A DNA stretch of 64,000 nt from Candidatus Woesearchaeota archaeon (lineage in GTDB: Archaea > Nanobdellota > Nanobdellia > Woesearchaeales > JAGVYF01), in contig JAGVYF010000003.1 of assembly GCA_018303425.1 (NCBI GenBank), forward strand, positions 5,150 through 69,149, given 5' to 3'. This document shows, one piece after another, positions 3,382 through 59,071 of this stretch (position 1 is its first letter; each line of letters starts with the position of its first letter). The notes under the pieces are model-generated. The model was not told where the DNA came from. It saw only the letters and a program-made list of their open reading frames with translations, and searched no databases. Both the position numbers and the translations under genes were made by a program.

Positions 3382-3873
3382 ATGCTGAATGCATTAAATA
3401 TATTAATGCTTGAGATATATTTTATTTTAGGACTTTTATCATTTGCGGGCATAATCCTGGGTCTGATATTAGGAATGATTGCTCCAGAAGAATTAAAACC
3501 TGGAGCTCCATGGTTTATCAAATTAAAAAATACAATATTTACATTATTAATATTAATATTATTATATTACAACATTTATAATCTTATAATAATACCATTA
3601 ATTATTTTCTTAATATTATACTGGTACCGAGGAACTTTAGGCGAAGAATCATATATGCTTGAGTATAGTATGATGGGTTCGCTATTTGGAATGGGATATT
3701 ATACCCCCGCCATACCTGAAATAATTGGATTGATTTTTATATATAAAATTACATCAGGAAGTTTGTTAATATACAAAAATAATAATTTCAATTTTTTAAT
3801 AAAATCAATTTGCTTAAGATTAATATTCTATATTTTGGGATTATTATTACCACTTATGTTTGCGAATGTGTAA
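3382..3873 (+). CDS. Hypothetical polytopic membrane protein
   Basis: 163 aa, very hydrophobic and Ile/Leu-rich. It overlaps the 3' end of carS on the opposite strand by about 27 nt. Confidence 0.3.
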   Translation: MLNALNILMLEIYFILGLLSFAGIILGLILGMIAPEELKPGAPWFIKLKNTIFTLLILILLYYNIYNLIIIPLIIFLILYWYRGTLGEESYMLEYSMMGSLFGMGYYTPAIPEIIGLIFIYKITSGSLLIYKNNNFNFLIKSICLRLIFYILGLLLPLMFANV

Positions 3874-4371: not shown

Positions 4372-4425
4372 AGATTATTAAAAATATATTGCTTTAATAA
4401 ATCTTATCCTATATCTAGCGAAACG

Positions 4426-4434
4426 TTTATAAAT
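4426..4434 (+). promoter_or_regulatory. TATA box (TTTATAAAT) about 26 nt upstream of the tRNA-Asn 5' end
   Basis: Archaeal TATA consensus at the expected distance from the tRNA start. Confidence 0.3.
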
Positions 4435-4458
4435 GAAGCTCGGATTTCATAATTCAAT

Positions 4459-4604
4459 GTCTCCGTAGCTTAGCGGTGGAGCGTGCGGCTGTTAAATTGG
4501 CGATAAGATTAACTAAAACGTCAATTAAAGAAACCGCAAGGTCCCCAGTTCGAATATTGGCGCCAGATATTTTAGACGCCTGTGAGAAAGTCTGGGCGGA
4601 GACG
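4459..4604 (+). tRNA. tRNA-Asn (GTT) with two introns: 38 nt at canonical 37/38 and ~36 nt in the T-loop (59/60 region)
   Basis: Acceptor GTCTCCG/CGGAGAC. D-stem GCT/AGC. Anticodon stem TGCGG/CCGCA with loop CTGTTA[intron]A. T-stem CCCAG/CTGGG with loop TTCGAAT followed by a 36-nt insert. Discriminator G. CCA is not encoded. Confidence 0.6.
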
Positions 4605-4670
4605 TCAAAAATCTAAGATTTTTGATCGTGCACAGGATTTAAAATCCTGACACGTTTTTTATTTTCACAT

Positions 4671-4801
4671 GAGCTTGTAGCTTAGCCTGGTGGAGCGCAC
4701 GACTGATAACATTTTGTCAGAGATCGTGAGGTCCGGAGTTCAAATATTAACGCCTGAGGCAAAATGCTTCGAACGTCAGTGAGAAAATCTCCGCAAGCTC
4801 A
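4671..4801 (+). tRNA. tRNA-Ile (GAT) with two introns: 14 nt at 37/38 and ~43 nt in the T-loop
   Basis: Acceptor GAGCTTG/CAAGCTC. Anticodon stem CACGA/TCGTG with loop CTGATA[intron]A. T-stem CGGAG/CTCCG with loop TTCAAAT followed by a 43-nt insert. An oligo-T run follows the gene. Confidence 0.6.
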
Positions 4802-4853
4802 TTTTTTAAAATGATACACAAACTTTATAACAAATTACCCAAAAACTATTCTT

Positions 4854-6395
4854 ATGTCTATAAATATTCCTGAATTATGCAAAGATGCCTATATCAATAT
4901 TGCTTTAGACACTATTAGGCTAGGTAAACAAGCGCTAATTTTTACTAATTCAAAACCTGGCGCAGAAAAAAGCGCAGAAGAAATATCTAAAAAAAATAAA
5001 AATAACGAATTATCTGAACTTTCTGAACAAATCCTAAAAACACTGCCTAAACCGACTAAACAATGTGAAAGATTAGCTAAATGCGTTAAACATGGCATTG
5101 CGTTCCACCATTCAGGTTTGCACCCCAAACAAAAAGAAATAATTGAAAATGCTTTTCGGGACGGCACTATCAAAATTATCGCGTGTACACCTACACTTGC
5201 TGCCGGACTTGATATGCCTGCGTTTAGAACAATATTAAGAGAAGTCAAACGCTACACTAATACTGGCTATAACTGGATTCAAACCCTGGAATATTACCAA
5301 ATGGCTGGAAGAGCCGGACGTCCGGGTAAAGAAGATTATGGTGAAAGTATATTGATTGCCAATGACAAAAAACATTCGGAAGAATTACTTAACAGGTTCA
5401 TTTATGGTTCACCTGAAGACATTTTTTCAAAATTAGCCGTTGAACCTGTATTAAGAACATACATCCTTTCATTAATATCAAGTGGCTTTGTAAATTCAAA
5501 AAAAGAAATTATTGATTTCTTTTCTAAAACATTCTGGGCTTTTCAGTTTAGAGATTTGGATAAATTAATTTTCATAATCGAAAAAATGTTGCGCCTATTA
5601 ATAGATTTTAAATTCATCGAAACTTCAAATACAAATAATTTTTCAAGCATTGATGAGATAAACACAAAATTATACATGGCAACAGCCCTAGGTAAAAGAG
5701 TTGCAGAACTTTACATTGACCCATTAACAGCTAACCATATCCTTAATTGTTTAAGCCGGAACGATAACCCCTCTCCGCTGGGGTTACTACAAATGACATC
5801 GCACACTCTGGAGATGATGCCTTTATTAAAAGTAAAAATGAAAGAATTTGACAGCTACCAAAATGAAATAATTAGATACACTGAAGAATTGCTTGAACCA
5901 GAGCCAACAATCTATGATTATGAATACGACGAATTCCTTAATTCATTAAAAACAGCGCTATTCTTTAATGACTGGATTGAAGAAAATTATGAAGATTATC
6001 TTTTAGAAAAATATAATATTACTCCCGGGGCAGTGCACACAAAATTAACTATACTTGACTGGCTGCTTTATACCTCCGCCGAAATAGCAAACATTGCAAA
6101 TTTAAAATCAAGTATTAAGCACATCAACAAAGTTAGATTTAGGATAAAACATGGAATTAAAGAAGAATTAATTCCTCTTTGCAGATTAAATAATATCAGC
6201 AAGATAAGGGCACGTAAACTTTACAACAACGGAATCAAAGATTTAGGCGATATTAAGAAAGCTAACTTCCAAACATTAATCCAAATTTTGGGAGAAAAAA
6301 TTGCATTAAATATTAAAAGCCAAGTTGGACAAAAAATCGAACCTGAAGTAAAACCAACAAAACGTATTGGGCAGATGGGTTTAACCAAATACTGA
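4854..6395 (+). CDS. Hel308/Ski2-like DNA helicase, C-terminal half only (RecA2, winged helix, ratchet and HhH domains); the N-terminal DEAD/RecA1 domain is absent
   Basis: Motifs IV-VI are present: [51 protein letters not shown]. There is an in-frame stop at 4812 and the tRNA genes lie immediately upstream, so no Walker A/B domain can be encoded here. Confidence 0.65.
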
Positions 6396-7487
6396 TTCAA
6401 GAAAACCTTTTTTATTTTTAACTGTTTTATCAAATTCTTTCAACAAATCTTTCTGTTGTTTATTAAGTTTTGTAGGTATATCTATTACAATTTTAACATT
6501 CTGTGAACCTTTCCCATAGCCTTCTAAATTAGAAATTCCATATTCTTTCATTCTAAAAACAGTATTGCATTGAGTGCCTGCAGGGATAGTTAAGGAAGCA
6601 ACACCTTTCAAGGTTGGCACATCAACATTTGCGCCCATCACAGCCTGCGCATAACTAATAGGCAATTCTAAATAAATATCATCTCCCTCCCTCTTAAAAA
6701 TATCATGCTTTTGAACATTAATATATACATAAAGATCTCCTTTATTTCCTCCATTTATACCTGCTTCACCTTCGTTTTTAACTCTCAATCTCGAACCGTC
6801 ATGTATACCACCTGGAATTTCAATTTCAATCTCTCTTGTATTTCTTACTCTCCCATTTCCGCCGCAATTTGAACACGCTTTGCGAATAGTTTTACCATGC
6901 CCATTACAGTCATGGCAAGTAGATGATTGCGCAAATATTCCAAAAGGAGTTCTAACCTCGCTTTTAATTACACCTGAACCTTGACACAAACGGCAATTAA
7001 TAATATCCGAATCAGATTTAGCGCCAGTACCATGACAACTTTTACATGTTTCCATTCGGGGAATATTAATAGTTTTTTTCTTGCCAAACGCGGCATCTTC
7101 TAAATTGATAGTTATTTCAAATTCAATATCACTTCCCCTAACCGAAGAACTCTTCCTGCGCCTTTTTCCTCCAAATAATCCATCAAACATATCACCCAAA
7201 TCAAAATCAAACCCGAAATTTCCGCCTGAAAACCCTGAAAAATCAAACCCGCCCTGTCCTGAACTAAAATTAGTGTCAGCTGTGCCAAATTGATCATACT
7301 GCTGCCTTTTTTTATCATCACCCAATACAGATGCAGCTTCATTAATCTCTTTAAACTTTTCATCCGAATCACTCTCTTTATTCAAGTCTGGATGATATTG
7401 TTTAGCTAACTTTTTATAAGCCTTTTTAATCTCTTCTTTTGAAGCGTCTTTCCCTAACCCTAAAACTTTATAATAATCTTTGCCCAT
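6381..7487 (-). CDS. dnaJ: Chaperone DnaJ (Hsp40)
   Basis: J domain [31 protein letters not shown] Gly/Phe-rich linker follows. Four CxxCxGxG zinc-finger repeats are present. Confidence 0.9.
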
Positions 7488-8247
7488 TTTTTACACCAAA
7501 TATTTCTAAAATTTCCGATTCACCAGAATAAAGAAGTTCAGTTTTTATATCTGATAAGCCTTGTTTCTCCATATTATAATCCATTTCTCGAGCATAAACA
7601 TCCGCAAACCCTGAACAATTTGCATGTGAAATTAATAGTTTTCCGCCCGGTCTTAATATTCTAATCATATTTTGAAATTTATTCCCCATGTTAAAATCAT
7701 TATATTCATAGTCCCGTTCAACACAAGCAGATTCATGTATCATGTTTGAAACTAGAACCATATCAAATGCCTTACTAAATGGCGCAGCTAATAAATCTCC
7801 TTGGACTATCCCAATATTTTTACATCCATATTTTTTAGCTCTTTTTTCCAATTCTGATAATGCTATTGCTTGAACATCTAAAGCAACAAAATAAGTTCCA
7901 GGATTATTTAATGCAAGATACACTGTTTTAAGTCCAGTTCCTGAACCAACATCTAATACTTTTTCACGCCCTTTAACGCTTTTATCCAGATAAGGAAGAA
8001 TAACTTTCACGTCGCTAGCGCGAAAACAATCAACATTGCCAAACAAATTGCATCCATAAATCAAATTATACATTTCTCTTTCTAAAGGCACTAAATCACC
8101 TGACCTTGAACAAATTAACTTTTCAATTTGTGTCAATCTTTGTTCTACTGCGTCACCCATGCCTTTTTTATTCAAATCAACTAACTCCTCTAATGAAATC
8201 TGTTTAATGCCTTCATTCCCAAAATAATCACTTAGCGATATCGTCAT
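7468..8247 (-). CDS. Class I SAM-dependent methyltransferase
   Basis: Motif [17 protein letters not shown]. The gene sits between dnaK and dnaJ. Confidence 0.55.
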
Positions 8248-8271: not shown

Positions 8272-10167
8272 TTAAGCTTTACCTTTTTTATCATTTTTAA
8301 CTTTGAAATCTGCATCAACAACTTTTTCGCCTTTCTTTTCACTAAAAGCTTTGCTTCTGCGCCCAGAACCCTGTTCTTGGGCTTTAGATTCAGATTTAGT
8401 TTCGGCATCTTTTTTAGCATGTTGTTCCTGAGCAACTTTTTCGTACATTTGAGTTGCAGCTTCTTGTAAAGGTTTTTGGACTTCTTCAAGTTTTTTCTTA
8501 ATAGCCTCCACATTCTTTTCTTTGGCTTCCATTAACTTCTTTAGTTCCACAATGCCTTTCTTAGCTTCATCAAGTTTAGCTTGGTCAGCCTTCCCTTCCA
8601 TGTCTTTCAAAGTTTTTTCTGATGTGTAAATTAAAGCGTCAGCCTGATTAACAACTTCAACTTCTTCTCTTCTTCTAACATCGGTTTCAATGTTAGCTTC
8701 AGCTTCTTTTCTCATCTTCTCAATTTCTTCCTTTGAAAGATTTGAAGATGCAGTAATTGTAATGTTTTGTTGTTTACCGGTTCCAAGATCTTTTGCAGAT
8801 ACATTTACGATGCCATTTGCATCAATATCAAAGGTAACTTCAATCTGTGGTATCCCTCTTGGTGCTGGAGCAATTCCAACTAACTCAAATCTGCCTAATG
8901 TTTTATTATCAGCTGACATTGCCCTGTCTCCCTGCAATACATGAATACTTACAGCGGGTTGATTATCTGCGGCAGTTGAAAATACCTGTGACTTCTTTGA
9001 TGGAATTGTAGTGTTTCTTTCAATTAACTTTGTAAAAACACCCCCCAAAGTCTCAATTCCCAAATCAAGAGGTGTAACATCAAGTAATAAAACATCTTTA
9101 ACATCTCCCCCTAAAATACCCGCTTGAATAGCTGCGCCTACTGCAACAGCTTCATCGGGATTAACAGATTTATCTCCTTCCTTGCCGGTTATCTCTTTTA
9201 CAATAATTTGTACTGCGGGAATTCTTGTTGAACCTCCAACTAATAATACCTTATAGCCATCACTTGATTCTAAACCAGCATCTTTCAATGCTTTTTCTGT
9301 TGGAGCTTTTAATTTTTCAAGAATTTCTGAGATTAAATCTTCAAATTTAGCCCTGCTCAATTCAGTATTAAGATGCTTAGGACCAGACTGATCAGCTGTA
9401 ATAAAAGGCAAACTAATTGAAGCATTGACTTTTGTGCTTAATTCAATCTTAGCTTTTTCAGCAGCTTCCTTTAATCTTTGCAATGCTACTTTGTCTTCTC
9501 TTAAATCTACGCCATGAGACTTTTTAAATTCCGTTGCTAACCAGTCAATCAAAGCATCATCAATATCATCACCACCTAAATGGTTATTGCCTGAAGTTGC
9601 CTTAACTTCAAAAACACCTTCGCTTATTTCCAAAACAGATACATCAAATGTACCCCCACCAAAATCAAATACTAAAATAGTCTGATCCTGAGTTTTATCT
9701 AAACCATAAGCCAGCGCAGCAGCGGTTGGCTCATTAACAATTCTTTTAACATTCAAACCCGCAATTGCACCTGCGTCTTTTGTAGCTTGTCTTTGCGCAT
9801 CATTAAAATATGCCGGTACAGTAATAACTGCGTCAGTAATTTTAGTTCCTAAATAAGCTTCAGCATCTGTTTTTAATTTTTGTAAAATCATAGCTGAAAT
9901 CTCTTGGGGAGTGTACTCCTTACCCTCAATAATTACTTTGTGATTAGTGCCCATGTATCTCTTAATGCTCCTGACGGTGTTTTCAGGATGAACGATTGCC
10001 TGATTCCTTGCTACTTGACCAACAACTCTTTCACCGTTTTTAATACTAACAACACTAGGTGTAGTCCTAGCACCTTCTGCATTAGCAATAATTGTAGGTT
10101 TTCCGCCTTCCATTACAGCAACAGCTGAAAATGTAGTTCCTAAATCAATTCCTATTGTTTTTGCCAT
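8272..10167 (-). CDS. dnaK: Chaperone DnaK (Hsp70)
   Basis: [24 protein letters not shown] and other Hsp70 signatures. The start is placed at [10 protein letters not shown] (ATG 10167) rather than the longer ORF start at 10239. Confidence 0.95.
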
Positions 10168-19799: not shown

Positions 19800-20732
19800 C
19801 TACAGATTAAGTTTCATATAATCATCCGCGCATATGACATTATCAAAATACATTGCCGCGTCATCTTGCAATGGCAAACTATTTTTATACCTTTGAGAAA
19901 AATGTGTTAACACAAGCTTTTTAACACCCGCTTTATTCGCTAACAGTGCTGCATCTTTAGAAGTCATATGTTTATACTTTTCACCTTTTTCAGCAAGTTC
20001 ACTTGTATATACTGCTTCAGAAATTAAAATATCCGCATCTTTTGCAAGTTTGATTGCGTTAGTACAAAGTGCAGTATCTAAAATACATGAAACTTTTTTA
20101 CCTTCAACAACAAATGTAGCATTTTTTACATTAACCTTTTTACCTTTATAAACGATAGATTTGCCTTCCTGCAATTTCCTTAAGTGCGGCCCATCAAGAA
20201 TATTATTTTTCTTTAAATATTCGGTATTTACTTTTAATTTATTTTTTTCAATAAATGAATAACCTAAACAGGGAATGCCATGATCAAGTAAAGCGCATTC
20301 CAAAATAAAATCTTCATTTTCAAAAAAGGTTTTTATGCTTTGGGGGTTTAACTCAACTATTTTTAAACCAATTTTCACATCAAAATAACACGATTTCAAT
20401 AAATGCGACATATACTTCTTTGTACCATTCGGTCCATAAATTTCAACTACCGACAAATTATCTTCATTACCCAAAGTTTGAATTAATCCAATCAAACCGC
20501 CAATATGATCCCCATGCCAGTGGCTAACTAAAATTTTGGTAATCTTGGTTCTTTTAATGCCAGTAATATTCATTTGTCTCTGCGTCCCTTCACCGCAATC
20601 AAATAAAATTCCCTCAGATTTATAACTAAGAAAAATACCCGATACATTCCTTTCTTTTGTCGGTACCATTGAAGAAGTACCTAAAAATGTTAGTTCCATT
20701 TTATTCGTAATTGGTGAACTTGAGTTCGCCAT
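19800..20732 (-). CDS. rnz: Ribonuclease Z (tRNA 3' endonuclease), metallo-beta-lactamase fold
   Basis: TFLGTSS near the N-terminus and HWHGDHIGGL. An alternative start is MELTFLGT (ATG 20699). Confidence 0.75.
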   Translation of the reverse strand: MANSSSPITNKMELTFLGTSSMVPTKERNVSGIFLSYKSEGILFDCGEGTQRQMNITGIKRTKITKILVSHWHGDHIGGLIGLIQTLGNEDNLSVVEIYGPNGTKKYMSHLLKSCYFDVKIGLKIVELNPQSIKTFFENEDFILECALLDHGIPCLGYSFIEKNKLKVNTEYLKKNNILDGPHLRKLQEGKSIVYKGKKVNVKNATFVVEGKKVSCILDTALCTNAIKLAKDADILISEAVYTSELAEKGEKYKHMTSKDAALLANKAGVKKLVLTHFSQRYKNSLPLQDDAAMYFDNVICADDYMKLNL

Positions 20733-20950: not shown

Positions 20951-21481
20951 ATGAGTAAAAAAGAAATTATTAAAGCAACTTTCATGAATGAAAGAGTATT
21001 AACTGAAAATACGGATTTAGCAAGAGAACTCTATAATCAAGGCTCATATGGTTCAATTGTTGACAATAAAGTACAACTTTCATTGGTTGAAGCTCTTTAT
21101 CTTATGGAAAAAAAAAGAGTTGAAGTTATGAATGGTAGGAACAAAGAATTTGATGTTGCAAAGTTCATTAAAAGATCGCAAAAAATTGAAAAAACTTTTT
21201 GGATAAGATACTGCGTTTATAAGGACATGAGAGACAGAGGATATGTGATTAAACCAGCTTTAAAATTTGGAGCAGATTTCGCTGTCTACGATAGAGGCAT
21301 TAAACCTGGAGAAGACCATGCAAAATGGATTGTTTACCCTGTGCATGAAGGAACTTCATTAACATGGTACGAGTTTGCTGCAAAAAACAGGGTTGCACAT
21401 TCTACTAAAAAAAGACTTTTGATTGGTATTGTGGGCGACAGAGACGTTACTTATTATGAAATTAGGTGGGTCAGGCCTTAG
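20951..21481 (+). CDS. endA: tRNA-splicing endonuclease
   Basis: 176 aa. C-terminal catalytic domain with KFGADFAVYDRG and AHSTKKRLLIGIV (Tyr/His/Lys triad context). Confidence 0.7.
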   Translation: MSKKEIIKATFMNERVLTENTDLARELYNQGSYGSIVDNKVQLSLVEALYLMEKKRVEVMNGRNKEFDVAKFIKRSQKIEKTFWIRYCVYKDMRDRGYVIKPALKFGADFAVYDRGIKPGEDHAKWIVYPVHEGTSLTWYEFAAKNRVAHSTKKRLLIGIVGDRDVTYYEIRWVRP

Positions 21482-33807: not shown

Positions 33808-33893
33808 GCCTCTGTAGCATAGCAGCTATTGCGTCGGCCTTGTAATATACACAAGAAAGCCGAAGGTCGAGGGTGCAATTCCCTTCAGAGGCT
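33808..33893 (+). tRNA. tRNA-Thr (TGT) with a 13-nt canonical intron
   Basis: Acceptor GCCTCTG/CAGAGGC. Anticodon stem TCGGC/GCCGA with loop CTTGTA[ATATACACAAGAA]A. T-arm GAGGG-TGCAATT-CCCTT. Confidence 0.7.
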
Positions 33894-47233: not shown

Positions 47234-48236
47234 TGTGTTATCCCTCAAATATTTCGCACTTGTTTAAAGTATGATAAAGCTGTTGCTTTATCCATGAAAT
47301 TAATAATTAAAAAACAGGTGCGTATAGTGAAAAGAAAACAAAATAGATTGTCATCAGCTTTAATCGCTAAGCAGTTTAATATTTCAAAACGCAGAGTGGA
47401 GCAAGTTTGGAGCTATTTCTGTAAAAATACCGCATATCTCCCGATACAAAAGCCAGGAAGGAAGCCTTATAGGAAGGAAATCCCTAATCTAAAAGATAGG
47501 ATACTTAGAATCCATAAGAAGCATAATTTTGGTGCTACTTATATTGCGAAATTTTTACGAGATAAACTTAAAATACCAATCTCAAATAATTATATTCATC
47601 AAATATTGCTTGATGGGGGATTAGCAATGCCAAATAAATGCAAACAAAAACGTAGAAAACCTTGGGTTAGGTATGAAAGGAGACATAGCTTGTCTGCGGT
47701 ACATATGGATTGGCATTATAGCTCTAAATTGAATAAATGGATGTGTGCAGTATTAGATGATGCTTCAAGAAAAATTATATCTGGTGGGGAGTATGATAAC
47801 GCATATGCAAGTCATTGTATAGATATGCTTGAAAAAGCATATGAGAAAAATAAACAGATAATTGGCATTAGGGAAGTGATTACCGATCATGGATCTCAAT
47901 TTTTTGCAAATAAAAAGAAAAACGATGGAGACCAATCTGAAAGTAAATTCCAGGAATACTGCAAGAATAAAGGAATTAATCATATTTTCTGTAAGTATCA
48001 TCATCCACAGACAAATGGGAAATTTGAAAAATGGAATCATACCTATGAACTACATAGATATAGGTTTAATTTTTTTGAAGAATTTGTCGATTGGTATAAC
48101 AATCGACCTCACGGAAGCCTTAATTTTATGACTCCGGAACAAGCGTTCTGGTTCAAAGCACAAGATATTATTTTAGGGTGGTTTTTTAAATGGGCAGAAC
48201 TAAATTAAAGATGCGAAATAATTACGAGATAACACA
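47234..48236 (+). mobile_element. Insertion sequence (IS481-like), ~1.0 kb, imperfect ~25-bp terminal IRs (TGTGTTATCC...TTTCGCA), 9-bp TSD ACGCTAAAA
   Basis: Left end TGTGTTATCCCTCAAATATTTCGCA. Right end (reverse complement) TGTGTTATCTCGTAATTATTTCGCA. Direct repeats ACGCTAAAA at 47224..47232 and 48237..48245. Confidence 0.7.
47294..48208 (+). CDS. Transposase, rve (DDE integrase-core) family with N-terminal HTH
   Basis: VHMDWHY, ITDHGSQF and HPQTNGKFEKWN form the DDE triad context. Confidence 0.75.
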   Translation: MKLIIKKQVRIVKRKQNRLSSALIAKQFNISKRRVEQVWSYFCKNTAYLPIQKPGRKPYRKEIPNLKDRILRIHKKHNFGATYIAKFLRDKLKIPISNNYIHQILLDGGLAMPNKCKQKRRKPWVRYERRHSLSAVHMDWHYSSKLNKWMCAVLDDASRKIISGGEYDNAYASHCIDMLEKAYEKNKQIIGIREVITDHGSQFFANKKKNDGDQSESKFQEYCKNKGINHIFCKYHHPQTNGKFEKWNHTYELHRYRFNFFEEFVDWYNNRPHGSLNFMTPEQAFWFKAQDIILGWFFKWAELN

Positions 48237-50826: not shown

Positions 50827-50990
50827 GGGCAGCGAGAGGGAGTCGAACCCTCCTCACAGGATTTCTGCAATTTGCCTTTAACCATCAGAAATGAGCTAAA
50901 ATAAAGTTTTTGCTCGCTGATTTTGGTCAAGCTTTTTGCTTGGCAAAAAGGTTGCCACAGTCCCATATTCTACCGATGAACTACCGCCGC
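50827..50990 (-). tRNA. tRNA-His (GTG) with encoded G-1 and a ~93-nt canonical intron
   Basis: Minus strand reads G-GCGGCGG-TA-GTTC-ATCGGTA-GAAT-A-TGGGA-CTGTGG[93 nt]A-TCCTG-TGAG-GAGGG-TTCGACT-CCCTC-TCGCTGC-C. Discriminator C73 pairs with G-1. A TATA box lies at about +51015..51025. Confidence 0.6.
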
Positions 50991-58722: not shown

Positions 58723-58780
58723 AACTTAAATCTATTATTTAGTTAATTTTTTAAATGAAGACTAGTTCTACTCTTATAAT

Positions 58781-58864
58781 GCGGTGTTGCCAGAGTGGTC
58801 AAATGGGATGGACTCAAGATCCATTAGCTTAGTGCTTACACAGGTTCGAGCCCTGTACGCCGCA
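58781..58864 (+). tRNA. tRNA-Leu (CAA), type II with long variable arm, no intron
   Basis: Acceptor GCGGTGT/ACGCCGC. Anticodon stem ATGGA/TCCAT with loop CTCAAGA. Variable arm TAGCTTAGTGCTTACA. T-arm ACAGG-TTCGAGC-CCTGT. A TATA box lies about 26 nt upstream. Confidence 0.75.
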
Positions 58865-59071
58865 TTTTATTTTCTCTAATTTAAAATGAAGTGAACATAG
58901 CGAACGCAGGTCTTATTGTTTTTAATGGGCTTTTTTTAAAAGATCGGCTCAATACACCCCATTTTTTATGGCTTAAAGATAGAATGAACATAACTTTTAA
59001 AATAATACCAAATTATAATAAATTACACATAGTAACCTTTAAAAATACATTTCTATTGTCCTTATTCTATT

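Follow-up and report, generated by a model that had tools for sequence, protein, structure and literature searches.

Non-canonical introns, multiple introns within one tRNA gene and introns in the T-loop are already established in Archaea, and the intron of euryarchaeal tRNA-Trp encodes a box C/D guide RNA. A T-loop intron with a relaxed bulge-helix-bulge (BHB) motif was cleaved in vitro in the pre-tRNA-Cys of ARMAN-2 (Hirata et al. 2012, PMC3488258), while tRNAs with multiple introns have been described in DPANN archaea, one Woesearchaeota genome among them, together with more tRNA disruption and incomplete tRNA sets (Kaneta et al. 2018, PMC5829648). For the Thermoproteales, the account in PMC4033280 has it that work from 2010 read similar introns in different tRNAs as large-scale transposition. 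Here we analyze a stretch of 64,000 nucleotides (nt) from the woesearchaeal contig JAGVYF010000003.1, referred to as the window, in which adjacent genes for tRNA-Asn and tRNA-Ile are each interrupted twice, once at the canonical position 37/38 and once within the T-loop. A preliminary description of this DNA presented this two-intron, T-loop arrangement as unusual, but the phenomenon is already documented in DPANN archaea (PMC3488258, PMC5829648). We consider it likely that the T-loop inserts are introns spliced by the tRNA-splicing endonuclease EndA and members of a T-loop-targeting, transposing family, here termed family A, which would be a DPANN counterpart of the Thermoproteales transposition.

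The tRNA-Asn(GTT) gene lies on the forward strand at 4459-4604, with exons at 4459-4494, 4533-4555 and 4592-4604. Its first intron (4495-4532, 38 nt) occupies the canonical 37/38 position and its second (4556-4591, or equivalently 4555-4590, 36 nt), a family A member with a short interior, the T-loop position 59/60. The tRNA-Ile(GAT) gene follows on the same strand at 4671-4801 (exons 4671-4708, 4723-4745 and 4789-4801, with a T-run after the gene at 4802-4807) and carries a 14-nt intron at 37/38 (4709-4722) as well as a 43-nt intron at 59/60 (4746-4788, or equivalently 4745-4787) that is close to the family A consensus. Since a T stands on either side of the T-loop insert, 59/60 and 60/61 are equally valid as numbering. 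The coordinates, the four intron lengths and the placing of the second insert in the T-loop that had been read from the sequence earlier proved exact, as did the view that two excisions are needed per gene: only after removal of both inserts in silico does ARAGORN return perfect cloverleaves, a 72-nt tRNA-Asn(GTT) and a 74-nt tRNA-Ile(GAT), with the T-loops UUCGAAU and UUCAAAU. With the anticodon-loop intron alone excised and the T-loop insert kept, ARAGORN detects no tRNA in either gene; with the T-loop insert alone excised, it calls an intron-containing tRNA. The unedited genes are detected neither by ARAGORN nor by Rfam at the gathering score, and a relaxed Rfam threshold over 4400-4860 gives partial, sub-threshold tRNA matches only (17.3 and 14.9 bits). 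The window tRNA-Ile T-arm is identical to the uninterrupted CGGAGTTCAAATCTCCG of a relative (L025), and because such intron-less relatives define the exon borders, the insert lengths are exactly 36 and 43 nt. An assembly artefact is ruled out because a 461-bp region is identical (100%) across ten independently assembled contigs from different samples. Jointly with the reading of the T-loop inserts given above, both are probably functional tRNA genes with two interruptions each.

The T-loop inserts of the window have many relatives. Metagenome contigs were scanned with the pattern GTTCRAATATT-N(15-45)-GTGAGAAARTC, which was taken from the window, and this yielded 55 loci: about 12 chance matches and 43 tRNA T-arms with a similar insert, in 33 distinct sequences. 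Including those of the window there are 35 distinct T-arm plus intron sequences, each of which gives an ARAGORN tRNA after insert removal. Family A has the consensus ATTGGCGCCYGAAGCGRCAATGCTTCGAACGTCAGTGAGAAAGT, ranges from 36 to 52 nt in length, and always stands after TTCRAAT in the T-loop. Its hosts span 16 amino-acid identities and 19 anticodons, namely Asn, Ile, Ser (three anticodons), Arg, Pro, Gln, Cys, Lys, Met, Thr, Trp, Ala (two anticodons), His, Glu, Val and Tyr; two Ile genes that ARAGORN mislabelled owing to their anticodon-loop introns were identified by eye. The contigs vary in G+C from 28% to 52% and encode proteins identical to those of metagenome-assembled genomes of Candidatus Woesearchaeota or Nanoarchaeota. 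On one contig with a family A tRNA-Ile (L087, 4852-6990) a protein is deposited as 'Candidatus Nomurabacteria bacterium', and this contig is probably mis-binned.

A covariance model (R2) for which only the 33 sequences from outside the window were used matches the Ile unit of the window (4734-4793) with 65.1 bits (E = 3e-18) and the Asn unit (4544-4596) with 51.6 bits (E = 7e-14), and has no other real match in the window. The homology of the two T-loop inserts that the preliminary description proposed is thereby upheld by a model that contains neither of them. A second model, R1, scores family A at 54 bits or more, against 16-26 bits for other T-loop introns. Rfam holds no family that matches family A, and literature searches, which covered journals outside subscription, returned no paper on a conserved T-loop intron family in Woesearchaeota. 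As for viral carriers, two scans of viral contigs gave two chance matches and none, respectively. All real copies lie inside T-loops, a context that the scan pattern required, and a degenerate hairpin search at other positions of the fetched loci returned mostly noise, from which only the 37/38 intron of the window tRNA-Asn stood out. Family A resembles the archaeal non-canonical BHB introns of Crenarchaeota/Thermoproteales and ARMAN-2 (PMC3488258) in lying outside 37/38, often as one of several introns, and in having relaxed junctions; unlike those introns, it is one conserved sequence at one site, found in 16 identities and many genomes.

The fold of the family supports splicing at this site. 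RNAalifold of the 35 sequences (alignment A1) gives a 5-bp T-stem, a 3-nt 3' bulge A-R-U60, a helix H of UUC/GAA, a 3-nt 5' loop R57 A58 A59 opposite a single A, and an 8-bp helix h' of UAUUGRCG/CGYCAGUG. Of the cells in the consensus structure 99.5% pair, and in eight base pairs both partners have changed; not one of 500 shuffles attains the observed pairing and covariation, and slid registers fall far short. Left unconstrained, 33 of the 35 sequences, that of the window Ile included, take this fold as their minimum free energy (MFE) structure, with the interior prolonging the rod. Two other structural ideas were weighed. The intron string UUCGAA matches the T-loop consensus and might have served as a surrogate T-loop, an idea not adopted because the hexamer is base-paired within the rod in both the MFE and the alignment folds. 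The local hairpin CGCY-NNN-RGCG, which shows some covariation by eye, overlaps h', is not the MFE structure in 33 of 35 sequences and amounts to a minor alternative to the long rod.

When the junctions were checked for BHB motifs, as had been suggested for this locus, such motifs were found to form, though in relaxed versions in all but one case. The exception is the 37/38 intron of tRNA-Ile, a strict hBHBh' with H of CUGA/UCAG, bulges UA|A and AG|A, and h' of CA/UG. The 37/38 intron of tRNA-Asn has a relaxed BHB whose H (CUGU/AAAG) contains one G.A mismatch, and its stem AAUUGGCG/CGUCAAUU resembles the family A stem. Both T-loop introns are relaxed as well, with a 3-nt 3' bulge, an H of three Watson-Crick pairs plus R.A, and a 3-nt 5' loop facing one unpaired base. 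On this model a 7-nt T-loop would be regained only with cuts at A59|N and R|U60. Such cuts would fit BHB geometry provided that R57 and the opposite A count as the fourth pair of H, of non-Watson-Crick type, and that the first U.G of h' opens to supply the third bulge base. An unrelated T-loop intron in a relative (L011) displays this geometry with four genuine base pairs in H (UUCA/UGAA), a pair of 3-nt bulges and a single unpaired base facing the 5' bulge.

The pre-tRNA would thus be expected to fold so that each insert, with its flanking exon bases, forms a BHB or near-BHB motif; EndA would cut in both bulges and an RNA ligase, for which RtcB is the expected archaeal enzyme, would join the exons. 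In the T-loop motif, helix h would be the T-stem itself and H would comprise U54-A, U55-A and C56-G with the non-Watson-Crick R57.A, the 3' bulge being A-R-U60 and the 5' bulge A58-A59-N opposite one unpaired purine. The long intron hairpin AUUGRCG/CGYCAGU would provide h', and cutting at 59/60 would restore the 7-nt loop UUCRAAU. It could instead be argued that no splicing takes place, the inserts being either a small DNA element that inactivates the genes, similar to a miniature inverted-repeat transposable element (MITE), or an extra arm kept in the mature tRNA. In being a conserved and dispersed repeat that forms a hairpin and has a fixed target sequence, the insert does recall some miniature transposable elements, and the failure of ARAGORN and Rfam to call the unedited genes would be in keeping with inactivation. 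We nevertheless hold this to be very improbable: the exons of 35 distinct cases, with 19 anticodons between them, are still perfect and show compensatory changes, the hosts include essential tRNAs of single-copy type at conserved syntenic positions, and the junctions are always BHB-like with covariation. Inspection of the borders revealed no terminal inverted repeats or target-site duplications, and an insert retained in the T-loop would destroy the elbow between T-loop and D-loop.

EndA itself is encoded in the window (endA, 20951-21481, forward strand) as a single-unit tRNA-splicing endonuclease of 176 amino acids (aa) with the Pfam domains tRNA_int_endo_N and tRNA_int_endo, and would presumably be the enzyme that removes all four introns. 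Its best match of solved structure is the catalytic alpha subunit from N. equitans (3iey_A, E = 6e-36), and it aligns without gaps to the alpha4 enzyme of M. jannaschii. Between its catalytic Tyr and His it is without the six residues whose insertion makes up the N. equitans-specific loop (as defined in PMC3488258), and neither the structure match nor the homologue alignment revealed a CSL, ASL or NEQ-type specificity loop in the protein. The homologues from Woesearchaeota are likewise single-unit proteins (176-238 aa), about 70% identical and with an invariant RG(V/I)KPGEDH. Enzymes of the alpha4 and alpha'2 types are reported to need strict BHBs, and loop insertions to confer broad specificity (PMC3488258, PMC5829648), and the host of family A differs from the systems linked to relaxed-motif cleavage in having a single-unit, alpha-type EndA without CSL, ASL or NEQ loops. 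Most Woesearchaeota EndA proteins (alignment A3) bear a Lys-rich N-terminal extension of 15-40 residues, a tail that could bind RNA and bear on substrate range; the window protein is without this tail. Neither a partner subunit of EndA nor RtcB was found within the 64-kb window, and no genome-wide search for a beta-like partner was made. The tRNase Z gene rnz (19800-20732, reverse strand) has the HxHxDH motif and the Pfam domains Lactamase_B_2 and Lactamase_B_4, and serves general tRNA 3'-end processing. The presence of endA and rnz in the window had earlier been counted among the unusual features of this locus; both genes are real, but they lie about 16 kb away and are housekeeping genes, so that their proximity is uninformative.

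Comparison with orthologous loci shows a patchy distribution of the T-loop introns among relatives. The tandem Asn-Ile pair adjoining a helicase gene is conserved in other genomes. In L011, where the helicase is 77% identical to that of the window, tRNA-Asn has a 13-nt canonical intron only and an uninterrupted T-arm GCCAGTTCGAATCTGGC, and tRNA-Ile has a 14-nt canonical intron and a 30-nt T-loop intron unrelated in sequence to that of the window (the similarity between the two is not significant, p = 0.07). In L012 (helicase identity 65%) tRNA-Asn contains a 46-nt canonical intron only, and tRNA-Ile has a canonical intron and a variable-region intron without one in the T-loop. Both Asn orthologues share the exons of the window gene, with stem changes that compensate each other, and their T-loop TTCGAAT is uninterrupted. 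Besides these two, the Asn orthologues of L060, L073 and L083 also lack the T-loop intron. For tRNA-Ile, the 5' half of the window gene is identical to that in 21 other Woesearchaeota loci, and the T-loop intron is absent in all 19 Genome Taxonomy Database (GTDB) genomes that share this exact 5' half. L060, by contrast, has a helicase only 47% identical to that of the window yet retains both the Asn-Ile-helicase synteny and a family A intron in tRNA-Ile. Intron presence hence does not follow helicase relatedness (another intron at 77%, none at 65%, family A at 47%), a comparison made on a small sample and judged against helicase identity alone. Two further features of these loci were observed: in L011 (5090-5280), the closest relative, the Asn-Ile pair stands in reversed orientation with respect to the CarS and helicase genes on its flanks, with a spacer of 5 nt against 66 nt in the window, and the variable-region intron of tRNA-Ile occurs in two genomes (L012 at about 9815-9836 and L024 at about 7600-7620) with the 3' end ...TCCCGATAAAGG common to both.

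The T-loop copy in tRNA-Asn is a recent gain, given that L011 and L012 lack it, and this raises the matter of its donor. One candidate is a local event in the genome of the window, in which one of the two neighbouring T-loop introns, Asn or Ile, was copied from the other. The recent gain would suit such copying, as would the fact that the two introns are neighbours and significantly similar (shuffle z = 4.7, p = 2e-4). However, each is nearer to the family consensus than to the other, with z = 6.8 for Asn and z = 13 for Ile (39 of 44 positions matching); the Asn copy is without the whole conserved interior present in Ile; and family A occurs in tRNA-Asn of an unrelated contig too (L084), so that the donor could be any family member in the genome. 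We therefore judge local copying to be improbable. The earlier proposal of intron duplication or mobility is accordingly retained in its second half, mobility being the best explanation, and given up as regards a local duplication between Asn and Ile, the homology of the two inserts being that of members of a widespread family. Some of the string matches on which it drew also need qualification. The shared ACGCCTG is present in both inserts, but it is not colinear, since the hairpin has it in its 5' arm in the Ile insert and in its 3' arm in the Asn insert; what the two truly have in common when aligned colinearly is ATT..CGCC...ACG.C.GTGAGAAA.T. ATTGGCG does open both inserts of tRNA-Asn, at 4496 and 4556, and the 37/38 intron of this gene resembles its T-loop intron (z = 3.1, p = 0.008) and has ATTGGCG...CGTCA in common with family A (z about 3, p about 0.01), which makes it the sole candidate for a copy at another position, given that the scan required the T-loop context.

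Spread of family A by transposition or gene conversion among tRNA genes is suggested because the 3' end of the intron, GAGAAAGU, needs only the near-universal T-loop UUC in order to build a splice motif, and any tRNA would consequently be a potential target. Similar introns do occur in tRNAs of different identity, as the 19 anticodons attest. The Thermoproteales transposition, as presented in PMC4033280, is alike in that different tRNAs have similar introns, which is taken there to mean that BHB introns move from one tRNA gene to another and are gained rapidly. Family A differs from it in its mesophilic, AT-rich DPANN host lineage and in its single preferred target, 59/60, defined by the universal UUC with which the 3' end of the intron pairs; it is also conserved at an exon-like level between distant genomes, not just within one.

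When all fetched loci were searched generically and with model R1, more 59/60 introns came to light that differ in sequence, in L011 Ile, L016 Asn (90 nt), L024 Pro and Ala, L028 Gly (14 nt), L040 Asp, L048 Gly (130 nt) and L063 Asp. They end in ...GAAAGU, except for L040 Asp, which ends in ...GGAAUGU. Position 59/60 of the T-loop is therefore a general intron site in this clade, and because introns at the same site differ in sequence, the BHB requirement alone does not dictate the sequence of family A. The long T-loop introns of L016 Asn (3550-3660) and L048 Gly (6936-7082) share GAGCGACATT[T]CGCT...GTCCCTCGG and may constitute a second T-loop intron family.

Conservation was examined in the six family A tRNA-Ile(GAT) genes, those of the window, L051, L060, L073, L083 and L087. 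Mean pairwise identity is 83.5% for the exons and 84.7% for the T-loop intron; for the interior of the intron, which the pattern did not fix, it is 79%, against a shuffled baseline of 57% with a 99th percentile of 68%. The 37/38 introns of the same six genes reach 39% identity and vary from 0 to 44 nt in length. The T-loop intron is thus conserved to the same degree as the tRNA-Ile exons, while the anticodon-loop introns of the same genes are unrelated. Among the 14 members of exactly 44 nt, the pattern-free invariant positions include the unpaired bases C8, apical G16, A19, A20 and U21, and A28 and A29 of an internal loop; the apical loop reads GNNAAU and the stem positions vary with compensation. 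The tRNA-Trp intron with its box C/D RNA offers a parallel as an archaeal tRNA intron conserved far beyond the needs of splicing, and it differs in that family A is without C/D boxes or guide elements and resides in many tRNAs.

Such conservation, which holds across genomes whose helicases are only 47% identical, admits a reading compatible with splicing, in which family A is a functional RNA module under purifying selection and its sequence, unpaired bases included, is kept like that of the exons. The module may serve as a site at which a protein or a tertiary contact docks and enables an alpha-type EndA, normally strict and without loops, to cut in the T-loop; it may otherwise be a handle by which the maturation of the pre-tRNA or the modification of its T-loop is coordinated or gated, or persist after excision as a stable circular RNA. 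Invariant unpaired bases beside stems that vary with compensation are what such a module would lead one to expect, and the differing sequences of the other T-loop introns in the clade indicate that the BHB alone does not impose the family A sequence. We regard this reading as possible but rather unlikely. It finds no known RNA family that matches in Rfam, and no C/D or H/ACA boxes or K-turn consensus; box C (RUGAUGA) occurs in no family A member of the alignment, CUGA is not conserved, and an attempt to read GUGAGAAAGU and CUGA-like strings as box C/D, H/ACA or K-turn elements was dropped, as the consensus is unmet and Rfam gives no match. Members with a short interior, such as the window Asn, L047/L065 Ala, L084 Asn and L038 Gln, would lack the function of the module because the conserved interior is missing from them. 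Part of the asymmetric conservation is explained by G/U-rich 3' strands, which tolerate transitions on the opposite strand, and the apparent conservation is inflated by ascertainment through the pattern.

Several points tell against the reading of family A as an EndA-spliced, transposing intron family, and temper our confidence in it. The T-loop motif is not a strict BHB, H having only three Watson-Crick pairs, and the window EndA belongs to an alpha4-like class reported to need strict BHBs (PMC3488258). The thermodynamic fold puts the 5' loop at R57-A58-A59, from which textbook cutting would produce a 6-nt T-loop. The collection was pattern-based, which makes GTTCRAATATT and GTGAGAAARTC invariant by construction, leaves the interior alone as an unbiased sample and, with a pattern derived from the window, underestimates the diversity of the family; moreover, only the two copies in the window certainly come from one genome. 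We infer splicing itself and the exact cut sites from the folds, and mobility from distribution only, with no mechanism or intermediate observed.

The TATA-like box TTTATAAA (4426-4433, forward strand), read from the sequence about 29 nt upstream of the tRNA-Asn 5' end, is a putative archaeal promoter, and a TTTATAAATG motif stands at equal distance upstream of tRNA-Asn in L011 and L012. The spacer between the two genes (4605-4670, forward strand) is 66 nt long, with two small hairpins and a T-run at 4655-4665, against only 4-5 nt in relatives. Over the whole window ARAGORN reports one tRNA only, a Leu at 58780, and Rfam at the gathering score three, at 33808, 50828 and 58781. These are tRNA-Thr(TGT) (33808-33893, forward strand) with a 13-nt canonical intron, tRNA-Tyr(GTA) (50827-50990, reverse strand) with a 92-nt insert at the anticodon loop, and tRNA-Leu(CAA) (58780-58865, forward strand) without an intron. 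None of the three has a T-loop intron, and four of the five tRNA genes in the window are interrupted. The window has a G+C content of 31% and encodes an archaeal signal recognition particle RNA (Rfam), CDP-archaeol synthase and a DnaK/DnaJ/GrpE operon in addition to endA and rnz, as well as the tRNA-modification proteins Trm5/TYW2, FtsJ, TruD and a THUMP methyltransferase. The homologues of the helicase adjoining the tRNA genes carry the names Candidatus Woesearchaeota or Nanoarchaeota, and because of these names and the archaeal genes the host is a DPANN archaeon of the Woesearchaeota. This Hel308/Ski2-like helicase (4854-6395, forward strand) consists of the second RecA domain (Helicase_C), a helix-turn-helix and domain 4 only, without the N-terminal DEAD/RecA1 domain. 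The form of about 515 aa is kept in thousands of Woesearchaeota homologues and may represent a split or truncated helicase. An open reading frame at 47294-48208 (forward strand) has an rve integrase core domain, pointing to an insertion sequence element or integrase.

Integrating elements are also known to disrupt tRNA genes, and the 3' part of the tRNA is a hot spot for them (Sugahara et al. 2012, PMC3293823), a likeness to the site used by family A. Family A is unlike them in its length of 36-52 nt, without a recombinase and with no flanking duplication of exon sequence. In four related loci the 3' portion of a tRNA, from about T-loop position 59 onwards, is directly duplicated 60-115 nt downstream of the intact gene, as with integrating elements (L012 at 9869-9990, L022 at about 6470-6550, and L019 and L020 with the T-arm CGGAGTTCGATT). 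The distal copy in L012 is a decayed duplicate of the whole tRNA 3' half; its GGTGAGAAAAAT, downstream of tRNA-Ile, was considered as a family A remnant and rejected, as it aligns as such a duplicate (TCGTGAGGA...), resembling an attachment (att) site. These duplications resemble scars that integrating elements leave at att sites, and they stand at the spot that T-loop introns occupy.

To our knowledge the only well-documented case of archaeal intron 'transposition' is that in the Thermoproteales, and the gain and spread of tRNA introns in archaea is an unsettled subject. With a single universal target and defined junctions, in many tRNAs and genomes of an abundant uncultured lineage, family A offers a cleaner system in which to study both intron mobility and endonuclease specificity. 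Standard tRNA finders miss such genes, so that the tRNA complements and the completeness of DPANN genomes are underestimated. Conservation at the level of exons in hosts with a loop-less EndA also questions the rule that ties EndA architecture to substrate range. Were the functional-module reading true, family A would be a T-loop-homing RNA element that can colonize any tRNA, with the universal UUC as its docking site; it would then represent an archaeal tRNA intron of a new class, conserved and specific for its target, and not a neutral passenger.

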